IMG/VR virus record: IMGVR_UViG_3300024272_000021
Origin: a virus
Taxonomy: Duplodnaviria > Heunggongvirae > Uroviricota > Caudoviricetes
Length of the DNA: 64,000 bases
Direction: 5' to 3' (one strand)
Shown: positions 4,361-54,596 of the stretch, piece by piece
How the letters are laid out: each line of letters begins with the position of its first letter
Numbering within the stretch: the first letter of the stretch is position 1
Notes under the pieces: model-generated
Told to the model about the DNA's origin: nothing
What the model saw: only the letters and a program-made list of their open reading frames with translations
Database searches by the model: none
Program-made: the position numbers and the translations under genes

Positions 4361-4761
4361 TAGAAGTAATTGCTGCTTAATAGTAGCATTCTACGAATAG
4401 TTTCCGTATAAAGTAATTTATATGATAAATAACACATTGAAATGCTGGAACACCCTAAAGCTCATATACCAAAGCGGAATGATGAAATAAACATAAACGT
4501 TATGGTTGCGAAAGCAGAAAAAAGTTATGAGATGATACATGGTTAGATCCTAAATATTATTGTAATGGGTAATCAGCAGGGAAGCTCCGAACAGGAGAAC
4601 CCTCAACGACTATTCCCATTAAGGGAAGTACACAATAAGCGATTGATTGTGGAAGTGGTGTGCCCCACATGCGTGGGTGAAGATATAGTCTGTGCTTTAT
4701 CGAAAGATAAAGGGCGCATTTGTGTGCCGGGTAAATGTAGCGGTTTACTCAAACTTAACAG
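4361..4761 (+). mobile_element. Group I intron 1 (ORF-less, 401 nt) in the major tail gene
   Basis: IGS GAAUAGUUUC (4395-4404) pairs with both the exon-1 end GAGAU (U.G) and the exon-2 start UGUUC. P7 is GACUA 4608-4612 / UAGUC 4686-4690, with AAGAUAUAGUC J8/7. The intron ends in G and splicing restores the frame. Confidence 0.9.
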
Positions 4762-4796
4762 TGTTCAGCATCGTGATTCCGGGCGATGAGGAATAA
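4762..4796 (+). CDS. Major tail protein, exon 2
   Basis: 35 nt that complete the split Leu codon and encode FSIVIPGDEE-stop. Confidence 0.8.
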
Positions 4797-4810
4797 TTTT
4801 ATTGTATCAC

Positions 4811-4839
4811 TTGACAATACAAAATTAATGTGATATAAT
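4811..4839 (+). promoter_or_regulatory. Consensus sigma-A/sigma-70 promoter with extended -10
   Basis: TTGACA (4811-4816), 17-nt spacer, TGnTATAAT (4831-4839), upstream of the endonuclease gene. Confidence 0.85.
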
Positions 4840-4958
4840 ATATTTATGAGATAGGTGTGGCGTCATGAACCATATCAACAAGGGCTAGGGCCTCTCACCT
4901 AGCCCTTCTCATATTTGATTATCAATTGAGAGAAGCAAATGATAAGAGAGGTATTTTT

Positions 4959-6494: not shown

Positions 6495-6515
6495 ATGCAA
6501 AAAAGGAGAACAAAT

Positions 6516-6749
6516 ATGCTTACATATTCAAAAATATTAAACAAATATTACGATGCAGAAAACGGGAATGTCGTATATGTTACCAATATGTTGCAAGCAC
6601 AACGCTACTTAAATAACGGCGGCGTTGAAGACCTTGTAGACATTTTGTATAGCGGTACGAAACGTGAAGATACACTTGTTTTTGTATTTCTAAAGACACC
6701 TCGTGTTCAGGAGCTATATAAAAAATGGCAGGCTCATGAACTGAATTAA
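6516..6749 (+). CDS. Small protein, possibly DUF5659-like
   Basis: ATG 6516 after an AAGGAG RBS; pattern QAQRYL..G...LVFVF.K...LYKKW. Confidence 0.5.
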   Translation: MLTYSKILNKYYDAENGNVVYVTNMLQAQRYLNNGGVEDLVDILYSGTKREDTLVFVFLKTPRVQELYKKWQAHELN

Positions 6750-30302: not shown

Positions 30303-30443
30303 ATGAAAATTTCAAATTTAATTAACAAAATTAAAGGTATAGCAATTGAAGCAAATGGCGACGAAAATAATTGTGAAACTATCATTGTTGTGAAAAATGA
30401 AGATGGTACTTATACGGAGGTGACATCTGATGAAGACAATTAG
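30303..30443 (+). CDS. Small acidic hypothetical protein overlapping the endolysin start
   Basis: ATG 30303 after AAGGAGG; 46 aa. Confidence 0.4.
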   Translation: MKISNLINKIKGIAIEANGDENNCETIIVVKNEDGTYTEVTSDEDN

Positions 30444-31206
30444 AAAAGGTTCTAAGGGTGATGAAGTAAAAGTTCTTCAACTTATTCTCGGTGTTGCTGA
30501 CGATGGTATCTTCGGTAATAAAACACAAACTGCTTTAAAAACTTGGCAGGCTAAATATGGCCTTACTGTCGATGGTATTGCAGGATCAAAAACTTGGAAT
30601 AAAATCGTAGAAAAAGCACCAACACTAAAGACTGGCGCAACAGGTGCTTGGGTCAAAGTTCTTGAGGTGTTGCTCGAAACCATGACTGATGATGGTAGAT
30701 ATCTTACTGCAGAAAAACAGGCTGTCAAGGCTTATCAGACTGCCAAAAAGTTATCTGTTGATGGTATTGTTGGTCCTAAGACTTGGGCCGCTTTATTTGG
30801 AGTGTCTACTACTGTAACTACTAACAATGGTGTAAACAGTGTTAAACCTGTCGATTATAAACAGTATGATTCTCGTTGGGGTAGCATTGTGTATACTAAG
30901 AATAATACTTACAATCGTAGACAAACCATTAAGAGCGGTGGTTGTGGTCCAACTTCTGCGGCTGATATAGTGGCTACTTGGTGGGACAAGTCTATTACTC
31001 CTAAGGAGCTCTGTGAGTTGGCGGTGAAATATGGTTATAGGACAGAAAATAGTGGTACAGCTTGGAGTTACTTCAAGTTTATTGCTAATAGATATGGCGC
31101 AAGTAAGTTTGTGCAGACTAGCTCTTTTGCAACTATGCAGGGATGCTTAGCTGATGGTGGTTATGTGGTGGTTTCATTTAGACCATCCAAATGGACCAGC
31201 GGAGGT
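30430..31206 (+). CDS. Endolysin, exon 1 (two peptidoglycan-binding domains plus C39-like peptidase N-part)
   Basis: DGIFGNKT/DGIVGPKTW PGBD motifs; YKQYD..W and GCGPTSAA catalytic Cys motif; joins exon 2 as WTSGG|HY. Confidence 0.85.
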
Positions 31207-31466
31207 TAACAAAATGGCCTCCTAACACGGTGAACCGATACATGTCGGGTGTCGTTCTTTATTGAACGGCTAACGGGGAACGCTAAACGTAATAACGCAT
31301 GCCAATCCCGTGCCAGTTTTTGATTTTCAAATAAGGGTGTAGAGACTATTCCGAGAGGAAGTACATTGCAGGTGAAACTCCTGCTTTGGAAGCGCCGTGC
31401 TTTGATGATAAATATATTGTCAAATGAAGATATAGTCCATCTCCATGGAAACATGGTAGGTTAATG
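31207..31466 (+). mobile_element. Group I intron 3 (ORF-less, 260 nt) in the endolysin
   Basis: P1 GGAGGU/GCCUCC; P10 AAUG/CAUU; P3 CACGGUG/CGCCGUG; P7 GACUA 31344-31348 / UAGUC 31433-31437; terminal G at 31466. Confidence 0.92.
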
Positions 31467-33375: not shown

Positions 33376-36300
33376 ATGGCTGGTAATGTAACTAAAAAGT
33401 ATACGGTAGGACTTAATCTTGATGTAAAAACTGCTGATGCGCAAGTTAAAAAGCTTGCCACAAACATTAATAATATGTGGGCAGATATGGGTAGCGCAGG
33501 AAATAAGTTTGCCGTTTTGAAGGATTTAGCAGATTATCTTGATCAAATAGATAAGAAAATTGCTGGTTTAAAAGGTAAAGATTTAGATCTTTTTAATAAG
33601 ATATTTGGTGCGGAAGGCGTTAATATTGATAAGGCTTTAAAGCAGGCAATGGAGCCTATTTTAAAGTCTCCTGAATTAATTGCTGATGCGATGAATGATG
33701 TTCAGACAAGATTAGCGGCAGTACAAACCGACCCAAAGGCAAAGGGCACTGCGGCAAGTCTTAGAGAAGTTGGTAAATCTATCAACGAAATGTATAAGCT
33801 TATTGGTCAGGCACCACCTATTGATATCGAAAAACAGCTAACGGGTGGCGGCAAGATTAAAGAAAAGCTTGCTATGTTAACTAAGCATTTTGAAGCTTTT
33901 GAGGTTAAATGGAAAGATGTTATGACAACCGCTGGTTCAGAAGGTGCACAGAGAACAGTAGAAGGTATTCAAGCAGAATTAGATAAGTTAGAACAACAAA
34001 TGAATAGACTTGGAGAAATTCAGAAGAAAATTAGTAATGTTAATAAGAACATGCAAAAATACAATGCGGAAGGAAGTATCTTTTCGCCTCAAACAAAATT
34101 TACTATAGAGGATGTAACAACGGCTATTCAAGAACTTGACACAGCGACAAAAAACTTTAAAAATTTCAAGGGAGACAAGAGTTCTCTTGAATATTTTGCC
34201 ATGTTATCGGACTACATTGAGCAGACTATTAAAGTAAGCAGTATGTATCTATCCATAGGTGCGAGTGGTGTCAATAAAGATTTATATGCACAATTAAAAA
34301 CAACAATTCTTGATGGTAAAACAGAATCACTTGCTGATATAATTGCGCACACAAATGGACAAATGGAAAGTAATTCGTTTAAGGCGCACGTTAAGTCTTT
34401 TTCTGAATATTCGAACTCTATTGATGGTCAAATTGAAACAATTGACTATCAAATGACAACTTTAGAAGATGAGTTAGAAAGACTTGGATCTGCTGCGGAA
34501 AATGCGGGAGCAGGTGTGTTAAAAGTTGGAGAACATGCGGTTAAAACCGCCGAGTATATTCGAGGAATGACCATAGCAATCAAAGAAATGTTTGATGTAT
34601 TATCTCAAACTTCTGACATTGGATATAAAGCATTGATTGATGGTCAAGGCATTGCAGTAAAACCCGGTCAATATAAAGAAATTTCTGCGAAAACTACCGC
34701 AGAAACATTTCTTGCAAACTTAATGCGGGATACCGATGTTGAAGTACATAGTCATCAAGGATTAAGTTCCAGTATTAATGTCCCAAATTTTAGACAGGCT
34801 ATGAAACATCAATATGAAGGTCTAACAAAAATTAGTGCGGTAATTGGTAAGAATGATATTGTCACTTTGGATTTGGCTAAAGTAAAAGCAGAAGACGCAG
34901 CTATTGCTTTAGAAAAGTTAAAAGAAGTAACAAGGGGAGATAATCTTAAAGAAATTTCGGTAGAAAAATTTAATAAAATTTTTACTGATATTAATCCTGA
35001 ATATACAAATATTGCTCAGAGATGGAATCCTTCACAGTTTGGTGATTTAGCGCAAAAAATATTTGATGTTAAACAAAATACACAACAAGCACTTGCTCCT
35101 GTAGAAAGGTTAAAAAATCTTTTAGTTGCGCTTGCTAACAAGAGTATTGATTTCTCTAATTATGAAGATTTATTAAAAACACTTTCTGCTGATAATGTCG
35201 GCGATATTTTTAATCAAATAGCACAAGCAGAAGGGATCAAAGAAGACGGACGAATATTACAGGTTGAAGATATATCTGTTGGAACTGTTCAGGATATTGC
35301 TGCGGATATTCAACGTCAAAAAGAATCGTTTATTGAATTAAGACAGACTGCGGGTGTAACATATAGCGAAATTGCAAAAGCCGCAAAAGAATATTCTGAG
35401 ACATACCATACAGCACAAGGTCAAAACAATGAATTTTTTAAAAAATATTTTCATGCTTCTGAAATAGAAGAAATTCAGAAAAAGTTTATGGACCTTGGGG
35501 ATGGTTTTCGTGATTTAAATGGTATAACAAGAGAATTAGCCGTAGACTTTGGTATAGATCCCGAAGACATCGAGTCTTTTGAACGTACAGAAAATGCTGC
35601 GCAACAAGCAGCGGTTAAATTAAAAGAACTTGATGAAATTGGGGAGTCTATTGATTCTCTATATTATGGTCACGAAATGACAGATGTTCGTATTGGTAAA
35701 TATACCGAACAATTAGATGCCGCAGAAAAGGCAATTAAGTCTTTAGGTGAGCAAGAGGTATTAACCGCACAACAAATAGAACATGCTAATGAAGTTATTG
35801 CAAATTCTAGAAAAATATTACAAATGGCGACAAATGACAATGAAGATGCACGTAAGGAAGCTGAAGGTAAATATGATTATACTTACGAACCAGAATTAGC
35901 AGTGGCTGAAGCTGAAAATAAGACTCTTCGTGCAGAGAATAATGATTTAAGACAACAACTTGCAGATGGGAAGGCAAAACAAGCTGCTGTTGAACAAAAT
36001 GGTGAAGTTACAACACAATCCGAAGCAGATCTAAATCATGAAGTTGCCGAAACAGCACAAGTTCAAGAACAATTGGAAACCGAACGTCAGATTACTGCAG
36101 AAAAACAAAAACAGTCTGATATAGTTTACCATGCAGGCGATTTAAGTAAGATAGATAAAACAGCAAAATCTTTCCCCTTGGGCCATGTAATTCCCAGTGC
36201 AAGTGATGTTATTTTTAATGGTGCAACAGGTTTATATACAACCGAAGATGTTAGACAATTTATAGGTAATGAATGGGATGGCGCTCCAGTAAGCTCTATC

Positions 36301-39300
36301 GATTTGTCCCAATATAAAATGTTCGATGCAAGAGTAGGCGAACTTGCTGCAAAGGCGAATGAATTTTTTACCAACTTAAATGGTGTTATATATGGTTATT
36401 TAATGGACTTCTCAGGTGAAGAGGTAGCTAAAATAACAAATACTATGAGCGTAGAAGATCTATACGCACAGTTCCAAGAAGTATTTAAAGGTATCAATAT
36501 GGATTTTGAAACCTTTAAAAATTTTGTTGAAAAGTCCCAGGCAATTGTTGAAGGACATGATTTCGCGGAATTTAAGCAACCTGCTATAGATCAAGGCATT
36601 GCAAAAGCAGGAGTAGCCCATAAACTACAGGGTGTTTCAGAGGAAATATTTAATTCCGATAGCTTCCAGACTCAGTTGATGAAGATGCTTGGATTTGAGG
36701 GCATCGATTTACGTGGAACCAAATTTAATGGCACATATAGCGGCGGCACAGTTGTATTCGATATTAAACCCGAAAGTTTAACGGCTGTTAATGAGAGAAT
36801 GTCCGATGTTATAACTCGTGAGATTCCGAAGGAAGAGTTTGAGATTACACCAGACTATTTAGAGCGTGAAGAAAAGCGTAGGCAGTTAGCTTTTGAGACG
36901 GCTGATGCAAATAGTAAACAGGCTGAAGGAGCTACGGTTGCGGTTAGAGAAGAAACGGCTGCACACCAAGCAAATACGGAAGCTATACAAAGAGAAACAG
37001 AAGCCAAGCGTGAACTTGCGGCGACTACAGGGGCAGATTATAGCGAAGATGACAGAATGGTTATAGAGCAAGCCGAAGCTAGAGCGAAAGCCGCAGAACA
37101 GGTTGTTCAACAAGTTAGCGCGAGAGTAAAAGCTGCAGAACAAGCCTCAAAAGAAGCTGGACTTCAAAGAGATCAAAAAGGGTTTGTCGTAGATAAAGCT
37201 AAAGAGACTCTTCGTGGTAAGCAGGCTAAACTAGAAATGGCAGAGCAAGCTAAGACTCAGGCCGAGAATCGACAGCAGTATGTAGAACGGATTAAGGCTG
37301 AGATTGAGGAGGCGCAGCAAGCCGCAGAGCAAGCTAAAGCTGAAGCTGAGGAAGCGCAACGGGCTGCAGGACAGGCTAAAGCAAACGCTGAGATATGGGA
37401 AAATAATATAAGAGAAGCAGAAGCTGCAAAGCGGGATGCGGAAAAGAATTTGGGACAAACTAAGGCAACATCAGAGGTGAAAGCCAAAAGAGCAGAAAAG
37501 GCCAAAGAAAATATACAAACCGCCCAAGACGCCGTTGTTGCATTAGATACTGAATTTCAACGTTACGTGAACCAACTTGAAATAGATGGCAAAATTGATT
37601 TAACAGAAATGATCAATTATGAGGATTATCAAGCCGTTTTAAAATCTATTCATGATGGGACTCATACTACGGTAGAGGCCTGCATTAGTGAATTTGAGAA
37701 ATTAAGTGCGCAACATGATATTTTGCCTCAGCATCAAGAATTAACCGAGAAAGAAAAGAAAATATCCCAAAAACAAACAAAAAAAATAAATGAAAAAAAA
37801 ACTGATTTTCAAATTGCGACACTCGAAGATTTTTCCAACGTTGTTAAACGCAATCAATTCGCAAAGACACAAAACCGACTTCGTCATTCTGATTCATTGC
37901 AACAAGAGATCGATGATACGTCGAGGTCTATGGAGGAATTCCAAAAACAATATGGCAAGATAATTGTTACGATGCGAGATGGCTTAAAACAAGAATCGGA
38001 AACTATGAGCGACCAAATTAGAGAATTTTTATCGAAGGTTTTATATGATAAAGCCGAAATCCAAGATATCGAATTTATATCTACAGCGGAACTTCAAGCT
38101 GAAGCTGAAAAGATTAAAGAGCGCAGAAAAGCTAGAGGTTCTGAAATGGCTCAAATACCCGATTCTGAAAGAGAAGCCAAGATGATTGAAGCGGCTCAAA
38201 CTAGAGCAACAGAGTCTCCTGTTGTAAAAAATGCAGTTAAAATAGCCGAAGAAAAAATAAAAGATGCGAATAGGGCTGCAGAGGAAATTCAAATAGCTGA
38301 AATGGCGTTAAGGGCCGCAGAAGATAAACTTGCAGAGCAGCAAGCCGTTTCTCCTTCTAATATGGCAAGGCGAGCCGAGGAAGCGACTAGAGCAGCTGCA
38401 GCACAAAAATGGATGGCAGAACAAAAGGCTTCGCTTATTGGCAATGATTCTAGCGATTCTGATGTGGCTGAGAAATCTAAAGCAGTTGAAGCGGCTCGGC
38501 TTGAAGTAGAAAATGCGGAAAAGGAATTAGCTCAAGCTCAAAAAGATTTGGAAACAGCAGAGCAAACATATCAAAAAGCGCAAGAAACGGTTCGTGTTGA
38601 AAAGGATGATTTAGTTAAAGCTCAACGCGATAAAGAAGAGGCATATGGCGTTTTATTTGATGCTGAAAAGCAAACTAAATCTGCTCCTGCTGAACCAGCA
38701 CAATTTGATCATGCGGAAAGTATCGAGCAAGAAGCCCAGGCTCATCGTGATAACGCTATCGCTATCGAAGCTGAAACTGCTGCTACTCAAGATCTTGTAA
38801 ATGTTCAAAACCAAGCAGAAGATAGTTCTAATGTAGAAGAAGTTTCTGAATCGTTGCCCGAACCTGAAAAGGTTTTCGATACTGAAAGTGGTCAATTAGC
38901 CATGTTTGAAGGAATGTCCGAGAGTGCTCAAAAGGCAAAGGATGATGTTTCTCAATTAAACGAAGAAGTTAAAGCTATCGAGGGACAGATTGGAATAGAT
39001 GAAATCCAAGAAGAGTTATCTCCCGTTCAAGAGCAACCCGAACCTCAAAATGTTGAAGTTTCTACTGAAAGTATAAATAGGTTAGCTGAAAGTGCCGAAA
39101 AAGCGAAGGCGAATGTTGTAGAATTGAGTAACGCCGTTGAGGAAGTAGACAAAGCAGATGATACACCTGCCGAATCCACTCCCGTAGAAAATATTTCCGA
39201 AGAATTGTCTGAATCCGCAGGCGTCGATCAATTGACTGGCAATGTTAACGAGGCAACAGACGCTCTCATCAGAATGGGCGATGAAGCAAAAACTGTTGAT

Positions 39301-40880
39301 GCCCAAATTGAAAATCTAGGAGATCAATCTACTCAGCCGCTTGTTGAGGTGCCAGAGACTAAAGAGGAACCGCCAATTCAAGTTAACGAAGTAGAAAAGG
39401 TAAACGATGCCCTTAAAGAACAGGAAAATATTGTTCAAGGCATTGCTGATGCTCAAACTCCTGTTGTTAATGACGTCCCTGTTATCGAGGCAGAGAATCA
39501 GGGGTTAAAAGAACAGAAGACTCTTACTGAGGACATTGCAAATGTTCCACAGCCTCCTGTTGAAGAACCAAAGAAAAAGACTAGAAAAAAGAAAATCAAA
39601 GAAGAACCTAAAAAAGATGATACTCCTCAGGAGCACAAGGAAAATGCACAGGCTATTGAAGCTGAAGCTGCGGCTACAGATAAGTTAGCCGATGCAACTA
39701 AAAGGGCAAATGCTGAGAAGAAAAAGGCCGAAGATGTGAAAACATCTTCTCGTAAAAAGGCAACAGTTTCTGACGAGGAAAGAGAAGAAAGAAAGGCTCG
39801 TAAGGCCACTATTGACAGTACGGAGAAAAAGCTGCGCGGAAAATTTAATACTCTTGACTTTAAAGTTGATACACAGAATCTAACTGACGAACAACAAAAA
39901 CTTGCTGATGAATATAAGAAACTTAATGATATTCTTGAGCAGTACGGAAGAGATGCTTCAAAAGTTAGTCAGCAGGAATTGGCCGATACACTACAAAGAG
40001 TTAATGCACTACAGCAAGAAATAGATGCATATAAGACAAAGTATAATATTGTTGATGGTCGTGGTGGCACTAAAAATGCATATGGTAAGACTGCTGTAGT
40101 TAATGCGCGGGCTAAGTACAATTCTATTGAAGGCAGGGCACAAGCATATGCTGGTTCTACTGTTGTCGATCCGAAATTAAAAGAATATAAAGCATCTTTA
40201 GAAGAATTAATAAAACTGCAAGCCCAATACAAGAGTGGACAGGAATTAACTCCTGAACAAGAGACTCAGTTTATAGAGCTAAAAAATAAATGTAATGACT
40301 ATTATAGATCTCTAAAGAAGGTTATTGATGCTTCCGATGAATTAAAAAATAATGGTTCCGAAGTCATGCCTATAATGGATGATATAGCTCTTGATGAATT
40401 TCCTGATAGAGCCCAAGCTTTAAAGAATTATGTTAATGAAATTCATGGATCTCGCGCCGCTATTGGTAAATTAAACGGCGACGCCACCAAGCTGGCATTT
40501 ACTATTAAAAACGGTGACGGAACTATTACCAAGATGACTGCGTCCTTGAATGCGGCGAGAACAGCAATTGTTTCTACCGCTGGAGATACTGAAAAGGCAA
40601 CTACCAAGCTTGGGCAGTTCTTTAGTGGTGTTTGGAGTAAATTTGGAGATTTATGGACATACGCTACTGCAAGATTTGGTGTAGATGAGGTTATTCAGCA
40701 AGTCAGACAGGGTATCCAGTACGTTAGAGATATAGATAGTGCTCTTACTGAACTTAAAAAGGTTACAGATGAAACGGATGCGTCTTATGACAAATTCCTG
40801 CAGACAATGTCTAAATCTGCAAAAGTAGTGGGTAGTACCGTTGCAGATTTAACAAATTCAGCTGCAGATTGGGCAAGGCT
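33376..40880 (+). CDS. Tape measure protein, exon 1 (long N-terminal extension plus start of the PhageMin_Tail-type core)
   Basis: Coiled-coil rich; ends LTELKKVTDETDASY...AADWAR-L, continuing as GYSLEEA at 41201. Confidence 0.85.
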
Positions 40881-41200
40881 TAATATTTAGGTCCCCTATA
40901 TGGCAACATATAGGTAAACACCCATCTCAAAACGGAGAAACTCCTGAGAAGGACAACCCCGTGGGTAATGTTAAATTTTAATATTTCATTTTAAAAAACT
41001 TCATTTTTATAATAATGAAATATTAAATATTTTACGTCCCGTAACGATCACAGCGTAATTGGCAACAATTATGCGTATGGTGGGGCTCTCTACGAGAGCA
41101 AGGTATGATCTGATCTGCACATATAATCTAATAATGAAAGTGCAGAGATAGGCAGAAATGACCTATCCCTTTTTATTTAAATAAAAAGAGTAACAAAATG
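40881..41200 (+). mobile_element. Group I intron 4 (ORF-less, 320 nt) in the TMP gene
   Basis: 8-bp P10 AAUAUUUA with exon-2 UGGAUAUU; P1 GGCU/GGUC; covaried P7 GAUCA 41046-41050 / UGAUC 41111-41115; terminal G at 41200; the frame is restored. Confidence 0.88.
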
Positions 41201-41722
41201 TGGATATTCATTAGAAGAAGCGGGACAGCTTGCGGAAACTACAGCAAAACTTCTTAATGTATCAGAGTTTACTTCTGTAGATGAAGCAACTTCCGCACTC
41301 GTGTCTGCGCTACAAGCATTTACCCAAGAAGGACAAGATGTTGCACAAAGCGCGGAAGAGATTGTTGACATTTTAAATAACATCGGTAATAAATATCCCG
41401 TAGCCACAAATGAATTAGCAGAAGGTTTGGCGGATTCTGGTGCCGCGTTAATAGCTGCTAATAATACAATTGAAGAACAAGTAGCATTGCTGGCTGCTGG
41501 TAACGCTACTATGCAGGATGTCTCCACTGTGGCAGCGGCTTTGAAGATTGTTGCAGCTAGATTGAGAGGCACTACTATTGAGGCAGATGATGATGCTGAT
41601 TCAGCAATTACCAACGTATCAAAGCTGCAGGCGAAAATTAAGGCATTAACTGCCGAAGCTAATGGCGGCGAGGGTATCGATATCATTAATGAAAAAGGCG
41701 AATATAAGTCAACGTATGAGAT
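41201..41722 (+). CDS. Tape measure protein, exon 2
   Basis: 522 nt: GYSLEEAGQLAETTAKLLNVSEF...NIGNKYPV...GEYKSTYEI, a typical TMP core sequence. Confidence 0.85.
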
Positions 41723-41854
41723 AAAATTATTGTCTCCATATAGAGAAATCTATATGCTATGTGCGTAAACATAGACAACAACTATATTGGTTAAAGGCCA
41801 GAAGTGGTTCAGACCAAGGTAAGACTTGTAATATTATAAATTAGGAGAAAAGAT

Positions 41855-42037
41855 ATGAATAAATATAGATGTGAATCTGTAAGGTTGTGTAGGTTTTTAT
41901 ATGGTCTTGGATTTGATAAAGAGTCTATTCAATATAAAGGAAAAGAAGCATGGTTATTTGAAAAAAGCGAAGAACTTCAGGAAAGCCTGGACTTCTTTTT
42001 TTATATGCGGAAAAAGATAAAAAATATTAATTTATGA
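41855..42037 (+). CDS. Intron-encoded small protein (DUF5659-like, tentative)
   Basis: Own AGGAG RBS; YRCESVRLCRFL...WLFEKS motif, homologous to 53078-53266. Confidence 0.65.
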   Translation: MNKYRCESVRLCRFLYGLGFDKESIQYKGKEAWLFEKSEELQESLDFFFYMRKKIKNINL

Positions 42038-42064
42038 TTGTAATTTTAAAGGAGCGAATGAAAT

Positions 42065-43588
42065 ATGGGATTTAGTTTTTATGATTGGTGTATAGAAAAC
42101 AATCGGAGTGATTTATTAGATAGATGGAATTATGAGTTAAACCATTGTTCTCCAAGGGATGTAAAATATAGATCGGGTAAAGATATGTATTTTAATTGTA
42201 TGAATAATAATCATCATGTGCCAGAGAAATTTCGAATTGATCATATTACCTTAAATACAGTAAAAGCAACATGTAGGCAGTGTAATTCTTTTTATCAATG
42301 GTGTCTTGATAATGGCGAACAAGAGCTAATTGATACATGGGATTATAATTTAAATGTGGATGATATTCATTTTGTCGCATATGCAAGCGGCAAGCGATGT
42401 TTTTTTAAGATATTAGATAAATATCCTAGCATTAGTTATCGTTTATCAGACATTACTAGTTCTAAGCATCTTAGTCCGATTAAAAAATTTTATAATTCGT
42501 TTGGATATTATTTAATACATACATATGGAGAAGATGCAATAGCAAAATATTGGTCTGATAAAAATAATAAAACACCTTGGAATTATGATAAAGGAAGTGG
42601 TAAGAAGGTTTGGTTTAAATGCCCGGACAAAAATTATCATGATGATTATCTTACTGAAATTTATTCTTTTACGATGGGGAGTAGATGCCCTTGGTGTGCG
42701 GGTAAAAAAGTTCATCCCAAAGATTCTTTTGCTCAATATAATATAGATAAATTTGGCATGGATTTTTTAGAAAAATATTGGCATAAAGAAAATATTATAG
42801 ACCCATGGACTATTCGTCCGTTTGCAAATAATATAAAAGTAATTATTCAATGTCAGCATAAAACGTATCATCAGTATGATGTTGTAGCAAGCGATTTTTC
42901 AACTGGGATCGATTGTCCGTATTGTAATAAAAAAAGATTACATATTTTAGATAGTTTCGGTATGCGTTTTCCAGAAGTTTTTGAAATTTGGTCTGATAAA
43001 AACGCGCAAACTCCCTTTGAATATCGTGTGGCTAGTCATGAAAAAGTATGGTTTAAGTGCAAAGATGGAAAACATGAAGATTATTCGCGACGGATATCAG
43101 ATTATTCATATAAACATTTTACCAGATGCCCATATTGCGTGCAGGAATGTGGCGAATCATCTTTTCAAAATCAAGTTAGAGTGTTTTTAAATGAATTACC
43201 CTATCAAATTTTACATGAATATAACTGTACTATCATTCCGATTAATTCAAAAACAAATCGTAAAATGCCATTCGATAATGAAGTATGTAATATTAATGGA
43301 ATAAATTTAATTATAGAAGTTCATGGTATTCAGCATTATGAACTATGTGGATGGCATATTACACAGGCAAAAAATAGTGGACGAACTCCCGTAGAAGAAT
43401 TTGAATATCAAAAATGGAAAGATAATTTTAAGAAGAATTATGCAATCGCACATCAATATGAATATTTGGAAATTCCATATTATAGAATTATAGACGATAC
43501 ATATAAAGATTTAATCATGTCTAAAATTAATTTAATAAATAATATAATATTACAAGAAACCCTAGAGACTGCAGGCGGTATGTGGTAA
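42065..43588 (+). CDS. Intron-encoded homing endonuclease-like protein (Zn-ribbon repeats plus Vsr-like domain)
   Basis: Repeated VWFKC...CPYC motifs; IIEVHGIQHY and YEYLEIPY; the 3' end overlaps the intron P7 element; paralog of 4959-6065. Confidence 0.8.
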   Translation: MGFSFYDWCIENNRSDLLDRWNYELNHCSPRDVKYRSGKDMYFNCMNNNHHVPEKFRIDHITLNTVKATCRQCNSFYQWCLDNGEQELIDTWDYNLNVDDIHFVAYASGKRCFFKILDKYPSISYRLSDITSSKHLSPIKKFYNSFGYYLIHTYGEDAIAKYWSDKNNKTPWNYDKGSGKKVWFKCPDKNYHDDYLTEIYSFTMGSRCPWCAGKKVHPKDSFAQYNIDKFGMDFLEKYWHKENIIDPWTIRPFANNIKVIIQCQHKTYHQYDVVASDFSTGIDCPYCNKKRLHILDSFGMRFPEVFEIWSDKNAQTPFEYRVASHEKVWFKCKDGKHEDYSRRISDYSYKHFTRCPYCVQECGESSFQNQVRVFLNELPYQILHEYNCTIIPINSKTNRKMPFDNEVCNINGINLIIEVHGIQHYELCGWHITQAKNSGRTPVEEFEYQKWKDNFKKNYAIAHQYEYLEIPYYRIIDDTYKDLIMSKINLINNIILQETLETAGGMW

Positions 43589-43760
43589 CATGTGCCGTGA
43601 AGTTGTTCTCCCTGTCAACAATTGTTGACGAGAGTAATATCCAGTCCGACCTCACACTATAACTAATTATATATAAAATGTGAGATGTAGGTCGAAAGTC
43701 CTACACGCCGCAATAACATATTGCGGTCAGTACCATCATAGATGGGAAAGTAACAGAGTG

Positions 43761-46700
43761 ATTATCAGAAATTTCAAAAATATTTGACAAAATGGACGAC
43801 CTATCGGCAGCTAACCTTTTGGAACTTGTAGCTGGTAAGAATAGAAGCTCGGTAGTTGCAGCCATTCTTCAAAATGGAGATATTTTAGACGAAGCATATA
43901 CCGACGCTTTTGATAGTGCCGGAAGTGCGGCTAATGAATTAGACACCTACTTAAATTCTATCGAAGGTAGGATTACCCTCTTTAACACAGCCGTCCAAAC
44001 CATGTGGACCAACTTCCTCGATGATGACGTAATAAAGTGGTTCGTTGATCTTGGAACATGGTTAGTTAAAGCTGCCGATGATGTAGGTCTATTACGTATA
44101 GCATTCGTAGGCTTAATGGGCGTTATGACGGTAAAAAACACCGATAAATTTGATATTGTTGGTTGGTTTGGCAAACTAGCCGAAAGTACTAAAAAAATAT
44201 CCGATATAAAAACTAATGGAATAGCTGAAACCGTAAAAGTTATTGCCTCTCTACCCGATATGCTGTCTGCCGTACAAGGTGTCGAAATATCTATGGATGG
44301 CATAGATGATTTGGCAGTAAAATTAGATGGCGCAACTGCTGCGGCGGCAACGGGACAAGAAGCATTGCAAAAATATGCATCGGGTTTAGGTGATTCCGAC
44401 AAAGCCTTAAAAGCATATATTGCATCTGTTGATGATGGGCAGTATAGCATGGCTGGCTTTAATAAGTTCTGCGATGCACATAATGCCCAGTTACAGACCA
44501 CTAGCGTTAAGACTAAACTTGCAGCTGCTGGTCATGCCGCGTTGAACGCTGCAATAACTATGGGAATTAGCCTGTTAGTAAGTTATGTACTCCCAAAAGT
44601 TATTAATTTCCTTGATGATCTGATACTTACTGCCGAAGAAGCAGCTGAAGCGGCAAAAGAACTAACCGACGCATATAAGACTGCAAAGAAAGAGTTTGAA
44701 GATGATATCGAACTCCTTACTATATCTAGTGACTCCGAATCTTATGAAACACTTTTGGATGAATTCAAGGAATTAACCATGGGTGTAAATAAGTATGGTG
44801 AAAATATATCTTTAACAGCTGACGAATATTCTCGTTATAAGGAAATCTGTGAAGCTATCGTAGGAATTCAGCCTTCTATCGCCAAAGGTTATGATAGCGC
44901 CACCGAGGCTATTGGTAGGAATGCGGGTATACTAGAAAAAGTCATTGGCTTAAAAAAGGAAGAAGCTAGACTGAATGCCGCAGAATTTGTCAGTTATGGT
45001 TTATATTCTGATAATGGTAATTTTGAAACACTAGCAACAAATGCCATCGAAAGTCGTAAAAAGGCGGCTGAAAATGCTTATTTAATGGCAATGGGGTCAA
45101 AGGAAAAAACGGGACTAATTATGGACACCGGATTGGTTAATACTTTGTATGGTCTATATGGCGGATATGACTATGATTATGATGCTGGTGAGTTTATTAC
45201 AGACAGACCATTTGATTCGGATGGAGACCGTCTGGCTACAAATCTTATGAGGATAATAGGATATTCTCCGAAAGAAATTGGTAAGGTATTGCAGACATAT
45301 TATAACGAATCTGGCAACTTTGAACTTGATCGCTGGGCGCTAGACTATCTAGATGAAATTGTAGAAAACAAAACTTTAATTGCAGAAGACGCAAAGAGGA
45401 TGGGGCTAGAGGGTACTGATGAATGGATTAGCACTATGTATGCGGAAGCAGATGCATATGAAAGTGCTTCTAATAATCTTAAAGCCGCAGCAGATAACAT
45501 GATCGATGTGTATCTGCAAATTCCTTATGCCTTAGAAGATTATGACGCTTTGTCTTCCGGTGAACAATCACTTCTTAATGCGTGGATCCAAAACGATGAT
45601 ATGTTTAAAATCGATGAGGAAACAACAGAGGAAGACATCTTAAAGGCAAAACAAACTATCATCGATATGGTTCGTCTGCTTGCCAACGAAGATTATTTCA
45701 CTGAGATTGATGGAAAAAAGGTTAGTGCCGACCTCATTCTTGATAGCATATTCAATCTTGATCCTTCCGAACTTGATTATGCACAATACAAAGAAGATAT
45801 GCAAACATTAGTAGACCATCTATGGAATGCAATTGGTGGAGAAAATAATGAGTTTGGAATTAAGGACAAACAACAATTAATGGTGATGTTCGGAGTCGAG
45901 TTTGTACCAGAAGAAGATGAACAAGCTCTTATAGATGACATCGTAAGAATCACTGGTATGGCACCAGAAGAGGCGCAGAAATGGATAGATGAACAACCTG
46001 CTATAGTTATCACTCGTATGCTTGAGTATGATTACGATGAAATTGGCAATACAGAAGGTTATGACGTAGATGACCTAGCAGAAATGGCAGTTCCGAATTA
46101 CAACTATATCGAGCCTAGAACTGTTAAAACTTATACTGCACTATCCGAAGAAGCATCTAATTATAATGATATCTTAGCGCAAACTAACGAACTTACTGGG
46201 TACAATGTAGAAGTTACTCAAGAATACAAAGACTCCTTAAAAGAGCTAGGAATCACAGATGAAGAACTCAATGAGTGCTTTGATGAAAATAATGGCTTAA
46301 TTGTCACCAACACAAGAAAATTAAGAGAACTCGTTGCAGAAAAAGAAAAAGCTCTTACTACTGATGTTAAAATGGCAAAGGCCCAGTCTCAATTAGATTA
46401 CTATGAATTAGTTAAAGAATTAGATGCTACTCTAGACGGTGTCACAAGTCTTGATGATGAAACTAAAGATTTAACGGATTCAATTTTGGAACAGATTGAT
46501 ATAGTACGAAAAGCCATTAATAATTACCAGCGTCTAGAAGATAGTCTCCTTGGCGTTACGAATGGTTTTGAAAAGTTCCACGAAGCTCAAGAAATAGACA
46601 GTCAAAATACTTATGGTGATGACTATGTTGATATGGCCCAAACCATGTATGATGCTTTCTATGTAAGTGGAGAAGTCGGAACGGAAGCTAATTGGGCTGC

Positions 46701-49700
46701 AATTGAAGCTTTAGTACCTGATTGGGTATATGAAGGTTTAGAGACTGATGGCGAAAGAATGAGGGCAATTTATGAGTATTTCAACAAAGAAATACTTCCT
46801 ACATTAACTCTTGAAGATGGTCAGTTATCTCTTGGATTTGAAAATGTTGAAGATTTCATTGAGCATGGACTTGCCTCTGGCGTTTTTGAGGGAGATCTTA
46901 GCAATTTCAGTCTTGTTGAAGGTTTAGATCTTGAAGAAGCTGCTGAATTAATGGGTATGACGACAACTCAGGCATATGCATTCTTTGCCACCCTTGATGA
47001 CTATACTACGGGAGATGGAATGTCTTTCTTGGCGCAGCTCGATGATAGTTTTTCTGGCAACATCATGAAAACCACTGATGAAATGCAGAGACTCAACGAA
47101 GAGAAATTAGCATTACTTAGTGGCGGTGAAGATGGCATTATTAGTCCCGAAGAGCAAGCACGTATCGACGAGATTAATAATGTAGATTTACCAGCTTGTG
47201 AGGAGAATTTACGGAAAATAGGTGAAACGGCCTATCAAACCTGGGATGAGTTTAAACACAATGAGATAGCCCTTGCCGCTTTAGGTGAAGTAGAAAATAA
47301 AGCTCAAAAAGTATCCGATGTGTTCTCGAAAGAGTTTATTGCTGAATTTGGTCTCAATGGCGACGACACAATCCAAGAAGCATATGATGACCTATTATTA
47401 ATACAATCAGGAATTGAAAATATTGATGCAACATCTGCTGCTGCGGCAATTGACGTAATTGATGAGGAAATTGCAAAGCTTGAAGAGCGGAAACGACGCA
47501 TTAATGAAGACACAACAATGACCCCTGAAATCAAAGCCGCAGAAACCGCAGAGCTTGATGCACAAATAGAAGCATACAAAAGTGATAAAGTTGAAATTGC
47601 AACTGAATTTGGAATTGAATTAACTGAAGAAGAAGAAAAAGATTTAGAAGAACAGTTAGAAGCAATCAAAGAATTTGAAATTGGCAATAAATCATTTATT
47701 GTTACTGACGATGGTACCATAAAGCAAACTATAGAGGCTCTTGACGAACTTAATAAAGTAGAAATAGATGATAAAACCTTTACAACTACGAATGTTATCG
47801 AAGAGAAACATACCAACGGAGGAATACTTGGCTGGATAACTGGAACAGATACATACAAAAAGGCCACTGGCTATCCCGTCAGAGTAGATGGAACTGCTCA
47901 TGCTGAAGGTACTGCTTTTAAAACAGGCTCATGGGGTGCTCCAAAGACCGAAGAAGCATTAGTAGGAGAACTTGGCCCCGAACTACTGGTTCGCGATGGC
48001 AAGTGGACTACTATTGGTGATGAAGGTGCGGAATTTGAACATATTGAAAAGGGTGACATTATCTTCAATCATAAGCAAACCGAAGAATTATTATCCAACG
48101 GACATGTAACTGGACGCGGTAAAGCTTATGCTGAGGGTACTGCTTATAATGATGTCACCGGTGTGTTTAAACCACAGGAAGAAAAATCTGAACCTATTAA
48201 ATATACTACAGTCTTCGATGAAATGTCTGACTATAACGACATTCTAGCTGAAACAAATGAACTTACCGTAGATAATATTGAGGTTACCGAAGAGTATAGA
48301 GAAGCTTTGGAGAAACTTGGTTTTACCGAAGACGAATTGAATACATACTTCGATGATGAGAACAAACTTCTTGTCAAAAATGTTAAAGGGCTTAAAATGC
48401 TCGTTGCATCAAAGAAAAAAGAAAAAGTAGCTACAGTCCAAGAAGTAAAAGCCCGAAATCAATTGGATTATGTTGCCAGTATTAAAGAAATTGGTAAATT
48501 AGTTGACGTCATGGAAGGTGCGTCCCAAACTCAGGAGGGTATTTCTAAAGCAACACTTGAAGCTTCTGATGTTTTACATTCTCACGTAGATGCTCTAGAG
48601 CAAACCATACAAGGTTATGCCCTTCTAGAATTAAAAATGTCTGATGCAGCAGCCGCTTATGATGACTTCGAGATTGCACAGCAACAAGATGCGGAATTGT
48701 CTTGGGGCGGTACCATGATCGATATGCTAGAGGCCATTGACGAAGGTTTTAGAACAGGTCAAGTTGGTTCCGAAGCATTCCAGGCGGCAGTAGCAGCTCT
48801 TGTTCCCGATTGGGTATATAAAGACCTTGATACTGTCGAAGAACAAATGCATGCCATTCACGATTATATTGACAGCAATCCTATTTTTGCAGATTGGTTT
48901 ACTGTCGATGACAATGGTAATTTCTCTATTGAATTTCAGAATATGCAGGCGTTTGTCCAAGATGGTATAGATGGAGTGACCGAATTTGGCGCGGTATTCG
49001 AGGGAACGGTAGATAACTTTACCCTAGCCGAGGGAGTTGATTCCCTAGAAGAATTCGCTAAGAGAATGGGAGTTACTGAGTCTGTTGCTTTAGCAATGCT
49101 TGGCGAACTTGAAAAATATGATGCGCGTTGGGGAAATGTTATTACCGATTTAACTACTAGTCCTTTAGATAGAGAAATTTTAAATGCAACAGAAGCATTA
49201 GAAGATGCTTATACGGCGCAAGAAGAGTTTATACGTAATGGCGGAGATTTAAACAGCGAGGAATATAAACAATTAGTCCAAGATGTTGAAGATGCGGAAG
49301 CTGCATTAGATAGTGCTACGGAAGCGGCAGGAGATTATGCAAGCACCTATTCTCAAGCCGAAGCCGTACTCAAGGGCGTAGATGGACAGATGACTTTTAC
49401 ACAAGAAACAGCAGATGCTTTAGCTAGATCACTTGGTTTAGTAAATGAAAATGGAGAATGTACTATTACTATTGATGATAATGGCAAGCTCTTGCTTACG
49501 GAAAGTCAAGCTGCAAGACTGCAACAAATACTGCAAGTGCTAGGAGAAGAGCCATCTATTATCGATGTGCAGCTTGCATATGATACAGCCGATGCACAGA
49601 TACAAAAACTAGAAAAAATATTAGACGACGGCGTAGTAGATGAAGCCGAAGCAACATTCCTAGTTGAACTAGACATTGATCCAGAGTCCGATAATCTAGC

Positions 49701-52700
49701 ACAAGAAATACAAAATGAGATTGACGAACTTGAAACAACCAAAACCGTTATTAACTTAACATATGGTATTACACAAACATCCGAAGGACAAGATAGCGGT
49801 ATTGAACAGTTATCTACATGGGAAACTAATGGAGTTACTATTCCTATACATGTTGATATTACTTCTTATCAGGAAGAAGCAGCTACCATAAATGAAAGTA
49901 CCCTTGATAATAAAGAAGTTGCCTTCACAGCTGATGCAACAGAAGCAAATGAAGAAATTGATTCCGTAGATAATAATCAAATTAACGACAAAAACGTAAA
50001 GATAAACGTAGATAATACATCTGCTCTAACTAATATAAGCACCGTTCAGACTGCTCTAAATAACCTTAAAGATAAAGAGATCAATATTAAAGTTAAGGTT
50101 AGCGGAGGCAATCCGATAAATGTTGGCGGCAGTGTAGACGTTGATGGTACGGCTCATGCATCTGGCACTGCTTTCAAGAGTGGTACATGGGGTGCCGAAC
50201 AAAATGAAACCGCTCTTGTTGGAGAACTTGGTCCAGAGTTATTAGTGCGTAATGGTAGATGGACTACTGTTGGTGAAAACGGTGCGGAATTTACTGATGT
50301 ACGTAAGGGCGACATCATCTTTAATCACAGACAGACTGAAGAGCTGTTGTCTAAGGGATATGTTACTGGACGAGGAAAAGCATTTGCAGAAGGCAACGCT
50401 TATGGATATGGATTGTTTGGTGATTATATTACCGACAAAGGCTCCACATTCAAAAATGGTTCTGATAAAACATGGTCGAAAACGGCGGATAAAGTATCTC
50501 AAGCTGCGAAAGATATAGGTAGTTCAGCTGAGGATGCAGCTGATGAATTCCGCGAAGTTTTCGATTGGATCGAAGTTCGTTTAGAAGAAATCAACAAAGA
50601 AATAAGCCTTAAGGGTGCCCAGCTCGAAAATGCTGTTGGTTTTACTAAACAAAATGCCATCATTGATGACATGATAGAGCTTAACCAGAAACTGTATACC
50701 AATCTAACAGCTGGTGCTTCTAAATATTATTCATATGCTCGAAATTTGCTTGCTAAAGTTCCTGCCGAATATCGCAAAGCAGCTCAAGATGGTACTATTG
50801 CAATCGAATCCTTTACAGGTAAAGTGGGAGAAGATACACTTGAGGCAATTAAAGAGTATCGCGAATGGGTACAAAAGGGTGACGATGCAACACAGCAAGC
50901 CGAGGAAACCTTAAAAGAAATTTCTACTCTCGCAAAGCAAGCTATTGATAATATTGCAGCCCAATATGACAATAAAGCTTCTTTAAGAGATAGTAAAATT
51001 GAACAATACGAGGCTTATAATGAGTATATAGAAACAGACCAAGGATTCTCGTCTGAAAAGGTCTATAAAGCAATAATAGATCAAAACAATAAAAAGATCA
51101 AAGACAATCAGAACAAACGTGATGACATGCAAGCCGAACTCGATGAAAAGGTTAAGTCTGGAGAAATCAAAAAATATTCTCAAGATTGGTATGACGCAGT
51201 TAATGATATTGCTGCAGTTGATGCTGAAATTATACAACTGCAAACAGATAATGAAAATCTGCAGGACGACATTAATGAACTTCACTGGGATAAGTTTGAT
51301 AGTCTTTTAACTCGAATTGATGCTATTACCGAGGAAACCGAGGGCTTGCTTAAACTTCTTGAGAATGAAGACGCCTTTGACGAAAGTGGTAATTGGACCG
51401 ATGAAGGTATTACTTCACTGGGATTATATGCTCAGCAAATGGAAGCTGCAGAATTTAAGGCAAAACAATTCGAAGAAGAGATTGATTATCTAAATAAGAA
51501 TTGGAAAAAGCTTGGCTATACAGAACAAGAATATATTGAAAAGCTTGCTGAATTGAAAGAGGGACAACAAGATGCTATTGATGCATATCATGACAGCAAA
51601 AAGGCTATAGTGGATCTCAATAAGGAAAGAGTCGAAGCTATTAAAGAAGGCATCCAAAAAGAAATCGAGGCTTACGATGAGCTCATCGAAAAGAAAAAAG
51701 AAGAATTGAGCGCCGAAAAAGACTTATATGACTTCCAAAAAAATGTTAAAAATCAGCAAAAAGATATAGCAGATATAGAACGTCAACTTGCTGCGCTGTC
51801 TGGAGATAATTCTGCATCGGCAAGAGCAAAACGTGCGCAATTAGAAGCGGAACTGGCAGAAGCAAAAGAATCTTTAGAAGATACATATTACGACCGTTCC
51901 ATCTCTAAACAACAAGAAGCGTTGGATGAAGAACAAGAAAATTTCCACGATGCCAAAGAAAAAGAAATTGAGGGCTGGGAAAAATATCTCGAAGACGTTG
52001 AGAAGGTTGTTGCCGATAGTTTAACTACTGTTCAAGCAAATACTGAAACGGTTTATTCAACCTTGCAAGAAATGGGTAACGAATATGGATTATCCATAAG
52101 TGAATCTATAACAACCCCATGGAAAAATGGTGAAACTGCGATTCAGTCTTTCTCTGAGAAATTCGGATTGGCTATGAGCTCAACAGTGGAAGAACTAAAA
52201 GAACTTGAAACAGTATTTAATGAAACTATAAAGGACATTGAACAATCTGGCAAGACGGCTGTTGAGACCGTAAATGAAAGTCATTCAAATTATACAGGAG
52301 CGAGCAAAGAAGAAGCAACGTCGGATAAAGGTAGCGGCGGCTCAAGTGGTGGTTCTAAAGATTCTGGTAATAGTTCTGGCGAAACTTATCCTTACGGCAA
52401 AGCTTCTGCAACTAGTGGAAATATCAAACAAGGTGCAAAGGGCAAAGATGTTAAAGCAATACAATATGCCCTGAATCAACTTGGATATGGCAATTCTGGT
52501 ACTAAGAGCGTCGATGGTATTTTTGGTTCTGGTACTACTAAAGCGGTCAAATCTTTCCAGAAATCAATGGGAATTTCTGCAGATGGTATCGTTGGCGTTA
52601 AAACCAGGCAAAAGTTTAAGGCTAAAGGATATGCTGTTGGTACTACCGGCGTTGATGAAGATCAGTGGGCCTGGATTGATGAAATGGGACTTGAGGAAAT

Positions 52701-53022
52701 TGTTTTACATGCTCAGGATGGTAAGCTTACTTATCTAAGCAAAGGCAGTGCAGTGTTGCCTCATGATATTTCAGAAAATCTAATGAAATTAGGACAGTTG
52801 GATCCTTCACTAATATTAGAACAGAACAAACCATCTGTCGGTCTAGGTTCGAACATTATTAACAATACTATGCAGATCAATGTAGATGCGAGTGTCGGAA
52901 CATTGCTGCATGTTGATGAATTTAATGGAGACGATCCTGCCGAGGTTGTTAAAATTGTTAATAAAGCTCTTGAACAACATACTAAAAATCTCAATTCCGC
53001 GCTTCGTAAATACACTCGTTAA
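43761..53022 (+). CDS. Tape measure protein, exon 3 (internal duplication, C-terminal peptidoglycan-binding domain)
   Basis: Acidic coiled coil; two GELGPEL modules; VDGIFGSGT...ADGIVG PGBD at ~52420-52620; YAVGTTGV...EIV and GSAVLP terminal TMP motifs. Confidence 0.85.
46120..50403 (+). repeat. Tandem internal duplication of a ~2.0-2.2 kb TMP module
   Basis: Copy 1 at ~46120-48147 and copy 2 at ~48196-50403; e.g. YNDILAQTNELT vs YNDILAETNELT, and LVGELGPELLVRDGKWTT vs LVGELGPELLVRNGRWTT. Confidence 0.8.
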
Positions 53023-53030
53023 TCATACTT

Positions 53031-53061
53031 GGGGAGAGGGTCGAAAGACTCTCTCCTATTT
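53031..53061 (+). terminator. GAAA-tetraloop hairpin after the TMP gene
   Basis: GGGGAGAGGGTC-GAAA-GACTCTCTCCT followed by ATTT. Confidence 0.55.
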
Positions 53062-53077: not shown

Positions 53078-53266
53078 ATGGTACAAAATACAGATATTTA
53101 TAGATGCTATAGTGTAAATCTTATGCAGTTTTTATCTCAAAATAATGAAAGATATATATTAATTGCAAAAGATATTAAATCTGATCGTCAATTTTGGGCG
53201 TATGTAAAAACTGATAGATTTAATAATTTGTTACAAAAGTGGATTAATAACAATCCAAAAAAATAA
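53078..53266 (+). CDS. Small protein (DUF5659-like, tentative), homolog of 41855-42037
   Basis: ATG 53078 after GGAGG; YRCYSVNLMQFL...FWAYVKT motif; the ORF-track extension to 52886 is spurious. Confidence 0.7.
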   Translation: MVQNTDIYRCYSVNLMQFLSQNNERYILIAKDIKSDRQFWAYVKTDRFNNLLQKWINNNPKK

Positions 53267-53291: not shown

Positions 53292-54596
53292 ATGAGGAAA
53301 TATGAAAAAGTAGATAAATGGATTGATTTGAGCGTATTACCTACAATAAGTAATACTAATAGAATTGATTGGGGTAATTCTATTGGCATTATGATGCAAT
53401 TTAAATACAATAAATACAATGGCATATTAAAAATAGTAAATAAAATTACTAAAGATAAATACAAGGTTGTTCTCTATATAAATAATGAAAGTATAGAATA
53501 CGTGTTAAATTCTAATGGAATTAAAAAATGCGAATTGGGCGGAGCATTTAAAATACCAATTGCAATTACGAATCCAGAGTTTATTAAATATTTTGTTAAT
53601 CAACAGGATGCATATACATACTCAATACAGAGCAATAAAAAGGTTGAAATGATATGTCCGTTGTGTGGTACTAAAAAAGAACAATATGTTAGAGTGTTAG
53701 CTAAGTATGGGCTTGCATGCCCAATGTGTTCAGATGGAATTAGCTATCCAAATAAATTTATGTTTAATGTTTTAACGCAACTTGATATTAATTTTAAGAA
53801 TGAAGTAACAAAAGCGACCCCAGGCTTTGAATGGATTGTAGGAAATTATAGATATGATTTTTATGTTGAATATAACCACACCAAAGTATTTATAGAAATG
53901 GATGGTAAATTTCATTTAGGGAATAAATGGCAAACTTACGAAAAGGCGCAAAAGACTGATCAATTAAAAGATAAACTAGCTTTACAACATGGCATAAAAG
54001 TAATTCGAATAAATTGTATGTATTCGAAAATTCAAAATCGTTATAAGTATATAAAAGACAATATTGTAACTAGCGAACTTAATTCAATTTTTAATTTAAG
54101 TAATATAAATTGGGATGTAGCAAATAGTTTTGCTGTAAGCAGTAATATAGCATTGGCGGCGGAATTATGGAACGATAAAGATTATTGCGTTATAGATATT
54201 GGTAATAAATTAGGAGTGTCGCGTGACACCGCTAGAGGTTATTTAAAAATTGCTTCAAAACTTGGCCTATGTGCTTATAATGATAACGAGGTTGAAATAA
54301 GAATGATAAACAAAATTAAAGAGAATAACAAGAAAAAATCAAAGCCAATAGCATTGTATCAAAATGGAAATATAATCAATGTGTTTCCTGGCGTAGTCGA
54401 TTTAGATCGTAAATCTCAGGAATTATACGGAACACATATAGATTTTAGAAATGCTTATGCTGTCTGTAAAGGGGATAAAAAACAAGCTTACGGTTATACT
54501 ATGAAATTTATTACTCGCGAAGAATATGAACAACTTTATCCGCAATTTAATCAACAATACAACATTAATGAGAATAATTTACAGGAGGTGAGCTAA
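53292..54596 (+). CDS. Free-standing homing-endonuclease-like protein (Zn ribbon, DUF559/Vsr-like nuclease, HTH, NUMOD1-like tail)
   Basis: CPLCG...CPMC; RYDF...IEMDGKFH...KVIRI; C-terminal SKPIALY...CKG.KKQAYGY; the stop codon abuts the Dit ATG. Confidence 0.75.
   Translation: MRKYEKVDKWIDLSVLPTISNTNRIDWGNSIGIMMQFKYNKYNGILKIVNKITKDKYKVVLYINNESIEYVLNSNGIKKCELGGAFKIPIAITNPEFIKYFVNQQDAYTYSIQSNKKVEMICPLCGTKKEQYVRVLAKYGLACPMCSDGISYPNKFMFNVLTQLDINFKNEVTKATPGFEWIVGNYRYDFYVEYNHTKVFIEMDGKFHLGNKWQTYEKAQKTDQLKDKLALQHGIKVIRINCMYSKIQNRYKYIKDNIVTSELNSIFNLSNINWDVANSFAVSSNIALAAELWNDKDYCVIDIGNKLGVSRDTARGYLKIASKLGLCAYNDNEVEIRMINKIKENNKKKSKPIALYQNGNIINVFPGVVDLDRKSQELYGTHIDFRNAYAVCKGDKKQAYGYTMKFITREEYEQLYPQFNQQYNINENNLQEVS

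Follow-up and report, generated by a model that had tools for sequence, protein, structure and literature searches.

The stretch of DNA analysed here, referred to below as the window, is 64,000 nucleotides long and lies in a complete 170-kb phage genome. Its tape-measure protein (TMP) gene is split by an empty group I intron and by a second, larger group I intron that carries two open reading frames, a 60-residue gene (s1) and a 507-residue putative homing endonuclease (n1), each preceded by its own Shine-Dalgarno sequence (SD). Removing both introns restores a single TMP reading frame of 5,762 residues, implying a very long tail, with the exon junction of the second intron reading TATGAGAT followed by ATTATCAG; alleles of this junction without the intron are present in three other loci (L008, L034 and L068; numbers with the prefix L denote the genomic loci compared in this study). 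In the second intron, helices P1, P2, P2.1, P3, P4, P7 and P9 pair fully, P1 has the U-G pair at the 5′ splice site, the intron ends in a G, and a perfect 14-bp P6a helix clamps the 1.7-kb cargo so that both genes lie in loop L6a, with the last codons of the nuclease running through P7. The Rfam model RF00028 does not detect this intron with its cargo in place, so its assignment rests on these pairings and on the restored frame, from which splicing is inferred. The coordinates of these and of other features in the window are given in Table 1. The original prediction, that a group I intron here carries two separately translated genes and that a similar pair recurs outside any intron, is confirmed by these observations.

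Table 1. Features of the window discussed in the text
Feature	Coordinates	Strand	Description and support
Upstream group I intron	ending at 4763 (region 4370-6065)		Apparently empty; cuts off the last 10 codons of the gene starting at 3595
Promoter	4811-4839		Perfect sigma-70 promoter
Hairpin	4880-4910		Follows the promoter at 4811-4839
Free-standing relative of n1	4926-6065		Follows the hairpin at 4880-4910
Third DUF5659-like gene	6495-6749		Conserved subfamily with no nuclease, hairpin or box behind it
Group I intron	31197-31460		Empty; Rfam RF00028, E 1e-10; splits the peptidoglycan-binding/peptidase gene starting at 30430
TMP gene	33376-53022		Split by the two introns that follow
Group I intron in TMP	40881-41200		Empty
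Group I intron in TMP	41723-43760	+	Cargo in L6a; 5′ splice site after U41722, terminal G43760; same intron at the same site in L005, L121, L126, L127 and L129
P6a, 5′ arm	41825-41838	+	14/14 bp with 43543-43556
SD of s1	41843-41847
s1	41855-42037	+	60 aa, DUF5659-like; Pfam PF18903 E 6.5e-4, below cut-off; TM 0.84-0.90 to DUF5659 models
Terminator-like hairpin and U-tract	41969-42004	+	Inside s1; arms 41969-41981 and 41986-41997; U-tract from the Phe-Phe-Phe codons
SD of n1	42051-42054
11-nt box	42051-42061	+	GGAGYKRAYGA over the SD of n1; candidate operator
n1	42065-43588	+	507 aa, putative homing endonuclease; DUF4379 zinc-finger repeats, C-terminal Vsr-like PD-(D/E)XK domain (E364, D404, E418, H424, D453)
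P6a, 3′ arm	43543-43556	+	Inside the n1 coding sequence
P7	43567-43646	+	43567-43571 with 43642-43646; overlapped by the last codons and stop of n1
Terminator-like hairpin	53032-53061		Follows the TMP stop
s2	53078-53266	+	62 aa, DUF5659-like gene of another subfamily, free-standing after the TMP stop; 109 homologue clusters
n2	53292-54596	+	434 aa, free-standing PD-(D/E)XK nuclease; PHROG 9084 homing endonuclease E 2e-16; PD profile E 2e-19

The nuclease n1 contains DUF4379 treble-clef repeats (E 3e-26) and a C-terminal domain in which D404, E418, H424 and D453 are invariant in 81 homologues, a set that, by analogy, would map onto residues of I-Bth0305I. It matches PHROG 559 (E 5e-22), a family that has been assigned to the Vsr fold in Bastillevirinae terminase introns (PMC11878797). 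A search of the PDB with the nuclease domain, by sequence alone, returned no hit. These features make n1 a plausible Vsr/EDxHD-like homing enzyme, with its activity inferred from sequence.

To understand whether s1 is a genuine gene, we examined its conservation and predicted fold. It has 172 homologue clusters, the best 120 at 70-94% identity, and across 48 loci synonymous sites are saturated (pS 0.73) while pN is 0.28; in comparison with L005 alone these values are 0.76 and 0.08. Thus, s1 is under purifying selection. AlphaFold predicts with confidence (pLDDT 96) a beta-alpha-beta-beta-alpha fold that resembles predicted structures of DUF5659 proteins (TM 0.80-0.84 to members in BFVD, and 0.90 to an Atlas cluster with 11% DUF5659 members). 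The s1 score lies below the Pfam gathering cut-off (19.9 versus 23.6 bits), although some close homologues carry the Pfam label, and we therefore refer to it as DUF5659-like. Fold searches found no solved relative (best Z 4.7, to UreE, Tfb5 and RPB11-like structures) and no known nucleic-acid-binding motif, a natural tandem DUF5659 protein folded poorly in prediction (pLDDT 47), and searches of cultured phage records with s1 or with a distant member returned no match.

The second pair in the window, s2 and n2, is real and lies outside any intron, but it differs from the first. The s2 protein is only 21% identical to s1 (HH probability 95%), n2 is not a close relative of n1 (phmmer E 1.4-4), and the pair has neither the hairpin nor the box described below. 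In the relatives checked (L089 and L091-L093), the s2 family precedes a PD nuclease after the TMP stop.

We next asked which genes accompany s1 elsewhere. Three scans gave 84 loci, of which 51 are non-redundant, including the window. In 47 of the 49 that could be assessed, s1 lies directly upstream of a nuclease gene or its remnant; the comparison set came from these same loci, but the nuclease families were checked by motif, Pfam and PHROG. In the two exceptions (L022 and L082), s1 is itself truncated or frameshifted and the nuclease is deleted. In L059 and L082 the nuclease is almost wholly deleted with its start, stop and box left, with s1 intact in the former and frameshifted in the latter. 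Enrichment upstream of nucleases had been named beforehand as a test of the pairing, and the linkage is far beyond chance. However, the partners belong to three unrelated kinds of enzyme, Vsr/PD-(D/E)XK, HNH and GIY-YIG, and near-identical small proteins precede all three. On the s1 tree the nuclease label requires 14 changes, compared to 15.3 for shuffled labels, and AU tests reject both an HNH-linked clade (p 2e-4) and a PD-linked clade (p 1.5e-7). The tree is short (171 columns), but its starred branches alone force at least 4 changes. These results indicate that nucleases are exchanged behind s1 and do not co-evolve with it.

The cassettes also differ in where they reside. Most are not in the intron type seen in the window; in 33 of 51 loci the whole intron core, with a covarying P7, lies upstream and the genes sit near the 3′ end, whereas others have a downstream core. 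Counted from exon ends, the cassettes occupy at least 12 TMP positions, and they are also found in introns of a gene that looks like a terminase (L077 and L080) and at intergenic sites (L078 and L079). In L066 (5571-8300) the s1 cassette lies in an intervening sequence 3′ of the TMP core that resembles neither layout. In seven loci (L009, L010, L015, L019, L048, L050 and L084) a hairpin 20-50 nt upstream of s1 has the loop YUGAUUA; this first looked like an operator, but by eye its loop is complementary to UAAUCAR just after the nuclease stop, and it is probably a long-range intron clamp that excludes the cargo.

Examination of the reverse neighbourhood shows that the companion is optional. 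Of 51 non-redundant relatives of n1, 9 have a DUF5659-like gene directly upstream and 42 have none. Close relatives of n1 (48-57% identity) in the same intron at the same TMP junction carry a small gene of a different subfamily, s3, which is about 25% identical to s1; the s3 cassette also occurs in phages that read TAG as Gln (L130 and L133). Two DUF5659-like genes in tandem (L094, 3576-4962) or one set further upstream (L151, 1782-3571) also occur before a DUF4379 nuclease. Within the window, the free-standing relative of n1 that follows an apparently empty intron, a promoter and a hairpin (4370-6065) looks like collaborative homing, although the 5′ splice site of that intron is not fixed. 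A broad profile search of 44 phage records found related genes, here called CYS, before GIY-YIG and PD nucleases, and other subfamilies before replication-type genes, a cysteine desulfurase and structural genes. In 401 bacterial genomes, Pfam hits mostly head mobile-element operons, and 1 of 13 preceded a nuclease; in five of these loci (L109, L111, L112, L116 and L118) the DUF5659 gene heads an operon of helicase, ParB-like or DUF3102-like genes next to a divergent HTH gene, the position of AlpA/Xis-type regulators in satellites. The link to nucleases therefore holds for particular subfamilies, not for the whole family.

Two features at the RNA level point to expression control. The first is a conserved 11-nt box, GGAGYKRAYGA, which covers the nuclease SD in 39/49 cassettes. 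With the same loose pattern used for all, it is found at 2/184 starts in this genome (one being this site) and at 6/218 background starts in the loci, that is, 1-3%. In the reverse set it appears once in 51, in the one locus with an s1-type gene, and it appears again in a second s1 cassette of L126. It thus follows the s1 subfamily rather than the nuclease, and is absent at the same intron site when another subfamily fills the slot. The box is fixed to the SD and lies 5-11 nt before the true start in all frames, which rules out its ATG as the nuclease start or its TGA as the s1 stop as the reason for its conservation. Pairing with the Ser-Leu-Asp-Phe-Phe codons of s1 does not explain it either, as there is no covariation and the pairing is no better than with background SDs. 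Because synonymous sites beside it are saturated, the box is under selection; a protein-binding site is the simplest reading, but this is inference. In a search for covarying residues, Ser8 of s1 ranked first with the box (Fisher 2e-4), but with one supported independent pair, and box loss goes with loss of Ser8 in only about 3 events.

The second feature is a terminator-like hairpin inside s1. A terminator scan of the window flagged a hairpin plus U-run at 41976-41991, and across the family codons ~35-49 fold into a long stem ending in the U-tract of the Phe-Phe/Tyr-Phe codons. This stem is at or below -5 kcal/mol in 44/47 loci (mean -12.7), compared to 9/53 control gene junctions, and is terminator-like at or below -8 kcal/mol in 39/47 s1 loci, compared to 2/26 DUF5659 genes with no nuclease downstream. 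Synonymous recoding halves the energy, from -13.1 to -6.5 kcal/mol (z -19); a control segment of s1 is also more structured than its recodings (z -7.6), so part of this effect is bias. Swapping arms between loci raises the energy to -7.9 kcal/mol (p<5e-5). Pair counts show 45 two-sided changes against 20 expected from shuffling (0/500), and slid partners pair far less, although relatedness inflates this test. The s3/CYS genes build a terminator differently, from their last codons and the bases after the stop (12 of 17 at or below -8 kcal/mol). In addition, 10/26 nucleases without a companion have their own upstream terminator-like hairpins, so the protein is not needed for that layer. The same scan found no promoter above chance before either gene of the intron.

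Taken together, our analysis establishes the linkage of s1 to nucleases, selection on the protein and on the hairpin, the presence of the box, and free exchange of the downstream nuclease at its start codon; how these parts act is inferred. We favor, as somewhat more likely than not, a model in which an ordinary group I intron and homing endonuclease carry, in front of the nuclease, a portable expression-control module composed of the small gene, the hairpin with its U-tract and the box, working like restriction-modification controller proteins or Arc of IS605 elements but belonging to neither. In this view, the hairpin would end part of the transcripts before the nuclease gene, or all transcripts outside the late, read-through phase, so that s1 is made earlier or in excess. 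The s1 protein would bind the cassette’s own nucleic acid, most simply the box as RNA, and lower nuclease translation. The benefit would be less cutting of the phage’s own DNA and less ribosome traffic into the ribozyme core, protecting splicing of the essential TMP mRNA. The direction could also be the opposite, with s1 as an antiterminator or activator. Binding, termination and an effect on expression are all inferred from sequence and predicted structure, the loci are not independent, and the hairpin and box sit next to s1 and may partly hitch-hike with it. Because the downstream TMP exons must be co-transcribed, a working terminator in this intron must be weak or be read through late in infection; the terminator-like hairpin after the TMP stop suggests that late transcription tolerates such signals. 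Several carriers are prophages, in which silencing a nuclease would matter. There is precedent in T4, where endonucleases are down-regulated by hairpins at the ribosome-binding site (RBS), autorepression and terminators, unregulated I-TevI translation impairs td splicing, and the mobE terminator stops about 30% of transcripts (PMC2988022).

Among alternatives, the one we consider least unlikely is leader-type control acting only in cis, in which translating s1 melts the hairpin or delivers ribosomes to the nuclease start and the protein is conserved for a separate phage function. The hairpin does lie in coding sequence, the nuclease start is within -70 to +65 nt of the s1 stop in nearly all intact cassettes, s1 reads through the box in 14/39 loci, and blocking the 5′ arm in silico lowers SD accessibility from 0.64 to 0.43 (p 2e-4). 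However, the 3′ arm pairs no better with its own box than with background SDs (-5.8 versus -6.2) and shows no covariation with it, the window itself shows no switch, and this model does not explain why a folded DUF5659 protein of several subfamilies fills the slot. In Bacillus, RNA polymerase outruns ribosomes (PMC13323073), which weakens ribosome-coupled attenuation if the host behaves alike. It is more doubtful that s1 is a general homing helper that improves repair or recombination at the cut. Strict linkage to three nuclease families and the optional nature of s1 are consistent with this, and broken s1 was seen only where the nuclease is also broken or deleted (L022, L034 and L082), but the order of loss is weak evidence because s1 is an eight-fold smaller target, and such a role does not predict the hairpin, the box or the fixed upstream position.

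The original interpretation, that the small protein is a dedicated partner of this nuclease acting as inhibitor or antitoxin, specificity factor, regulator or maturase, is partly supported: the gene is selected and its pairing with nucleases is real, but it is not dedicated to this nuclease, and of the roles proposed inhibitor, specificity factor and maturase are disfavored, whereas that of a regulator fits best, with the new evidence for it at the RNA level. A maturase-like splicing cofactor is improbable. Most copies are in group I introns, s1 is mildly basic (12 K/R versus 9 D/E), and it stays intact in some introns whose nuclease has decayed (L008, L041 and L059); yet free-standing cassettes exist (L072, L078, L079 and the second pair of the window), related introns without cargo or with a nuclease alone are common in the same phages, and the ribozyme is complete without cargo. 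Also improbable is that s1 binds and inhibits or retargets its nuclease, despite its position directly upstream of a toxic gene and its exposed aromatic C-terminal helix, because s1 proteins of 75-86% identity precede unrelated catalytic folds with no co-evolution, while 50%-identical nucleases take a 25%-identical companion or none. Complex prediction of s1 with n1 gave no answer (score 0.00) and was used neither for nor against binding.

Comparison with characterized systems shows partial parallels. The T4 endonucleases I-TevI/II/III, SegB and MobE share a nuclease gene in an intron loop whose 3′ end runs into the core, as well as layered down-regulation by RBS-sequestering hairpins, an operator and, for mobE and segF, an intrinsic terminator (PMC2988022). 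There, the nuclease represses itself and the controls are non-coding, whereas here a separate conserved protein gene carries the hairpin and moves between nuclease families. Controller proteins of type II restriction-modification systems, such as C.PvuII, are likewise encoded by a small gene co-transcribed directly upstream of an endonuclease gene, with a conserved box, and set endonuclease timing (PMC2175313). C proteins are HTH proteins acting at paired C-boxes upstream of their own gene; s1 has another predicted fold, no shared motif was seen by eye upstream of s1, the box is non-palindromic and lies on the nuclease RBS, and there is no methyltransferase. Arc of IS605-family transposons is also an optional small accessory protein that restrains expression of a selfish nuclease element, but it is a ribbon-helix-helix protein that binds promoter DNA, in a transposon with TnpB (bioRxiv 10.64898/2026.09.24.754181). 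The T4 RegB site GGAGRAYARAA and RegA operators offer an 11-nt signal that starts at the SD GGAG and is read by a small phage protein to shut off translation (PMC3014915), with a different consensus and with no sequence or fold match of s1 to RegA or RegB. Group I introns in tape-measure and terminase genes, homologous introns with unrelated nucleases and PHROG 559 Vsr-fold nucleases have been described in Bacillus cereus-group prophages (TMP-IVS1 to 3; PMC2504315) and Bastillevirinae (PMC11878797); those introns carry one nuclease gene or none, and we found no companion gene described there. Our literature searches, which mostly did not cover subscription journals, found no report of a companion gene for phage homing nucleases and no paper naming DUF5659 (no hit in 8.4 million papers).

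A broader reading, which we offer only tentatively, is that DUF5659 proteins are a family of small sequence-specific regulators of mobile elements, several subfamilies of which have been recruited as universal controllers of phage homing endonucleases. Each would recognize its own box at the nuclease start and work with an attenuator written into its own gene, so that any nuclease dropped in behind the module is tamed and the module-nuclease pair moves between introns, sites and intergenic positions. The arrangement gives the first testable function, with a predicted 11-nt target and a predicted terminator, for DUF5659, which recurs in phages and integrative elements. Phage group I introns are taken to carry one gene, the nuclease, with control by non-coding signals or self-repression. 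A dedicated second gene conserved across HNH, GIY-YIG and Vsr-like enzymes, as seen here in large gut and rumen phages, would be a new layer in homing biology and could help explain how tape-measure genes tolerate so many nuclease-bearing introns.
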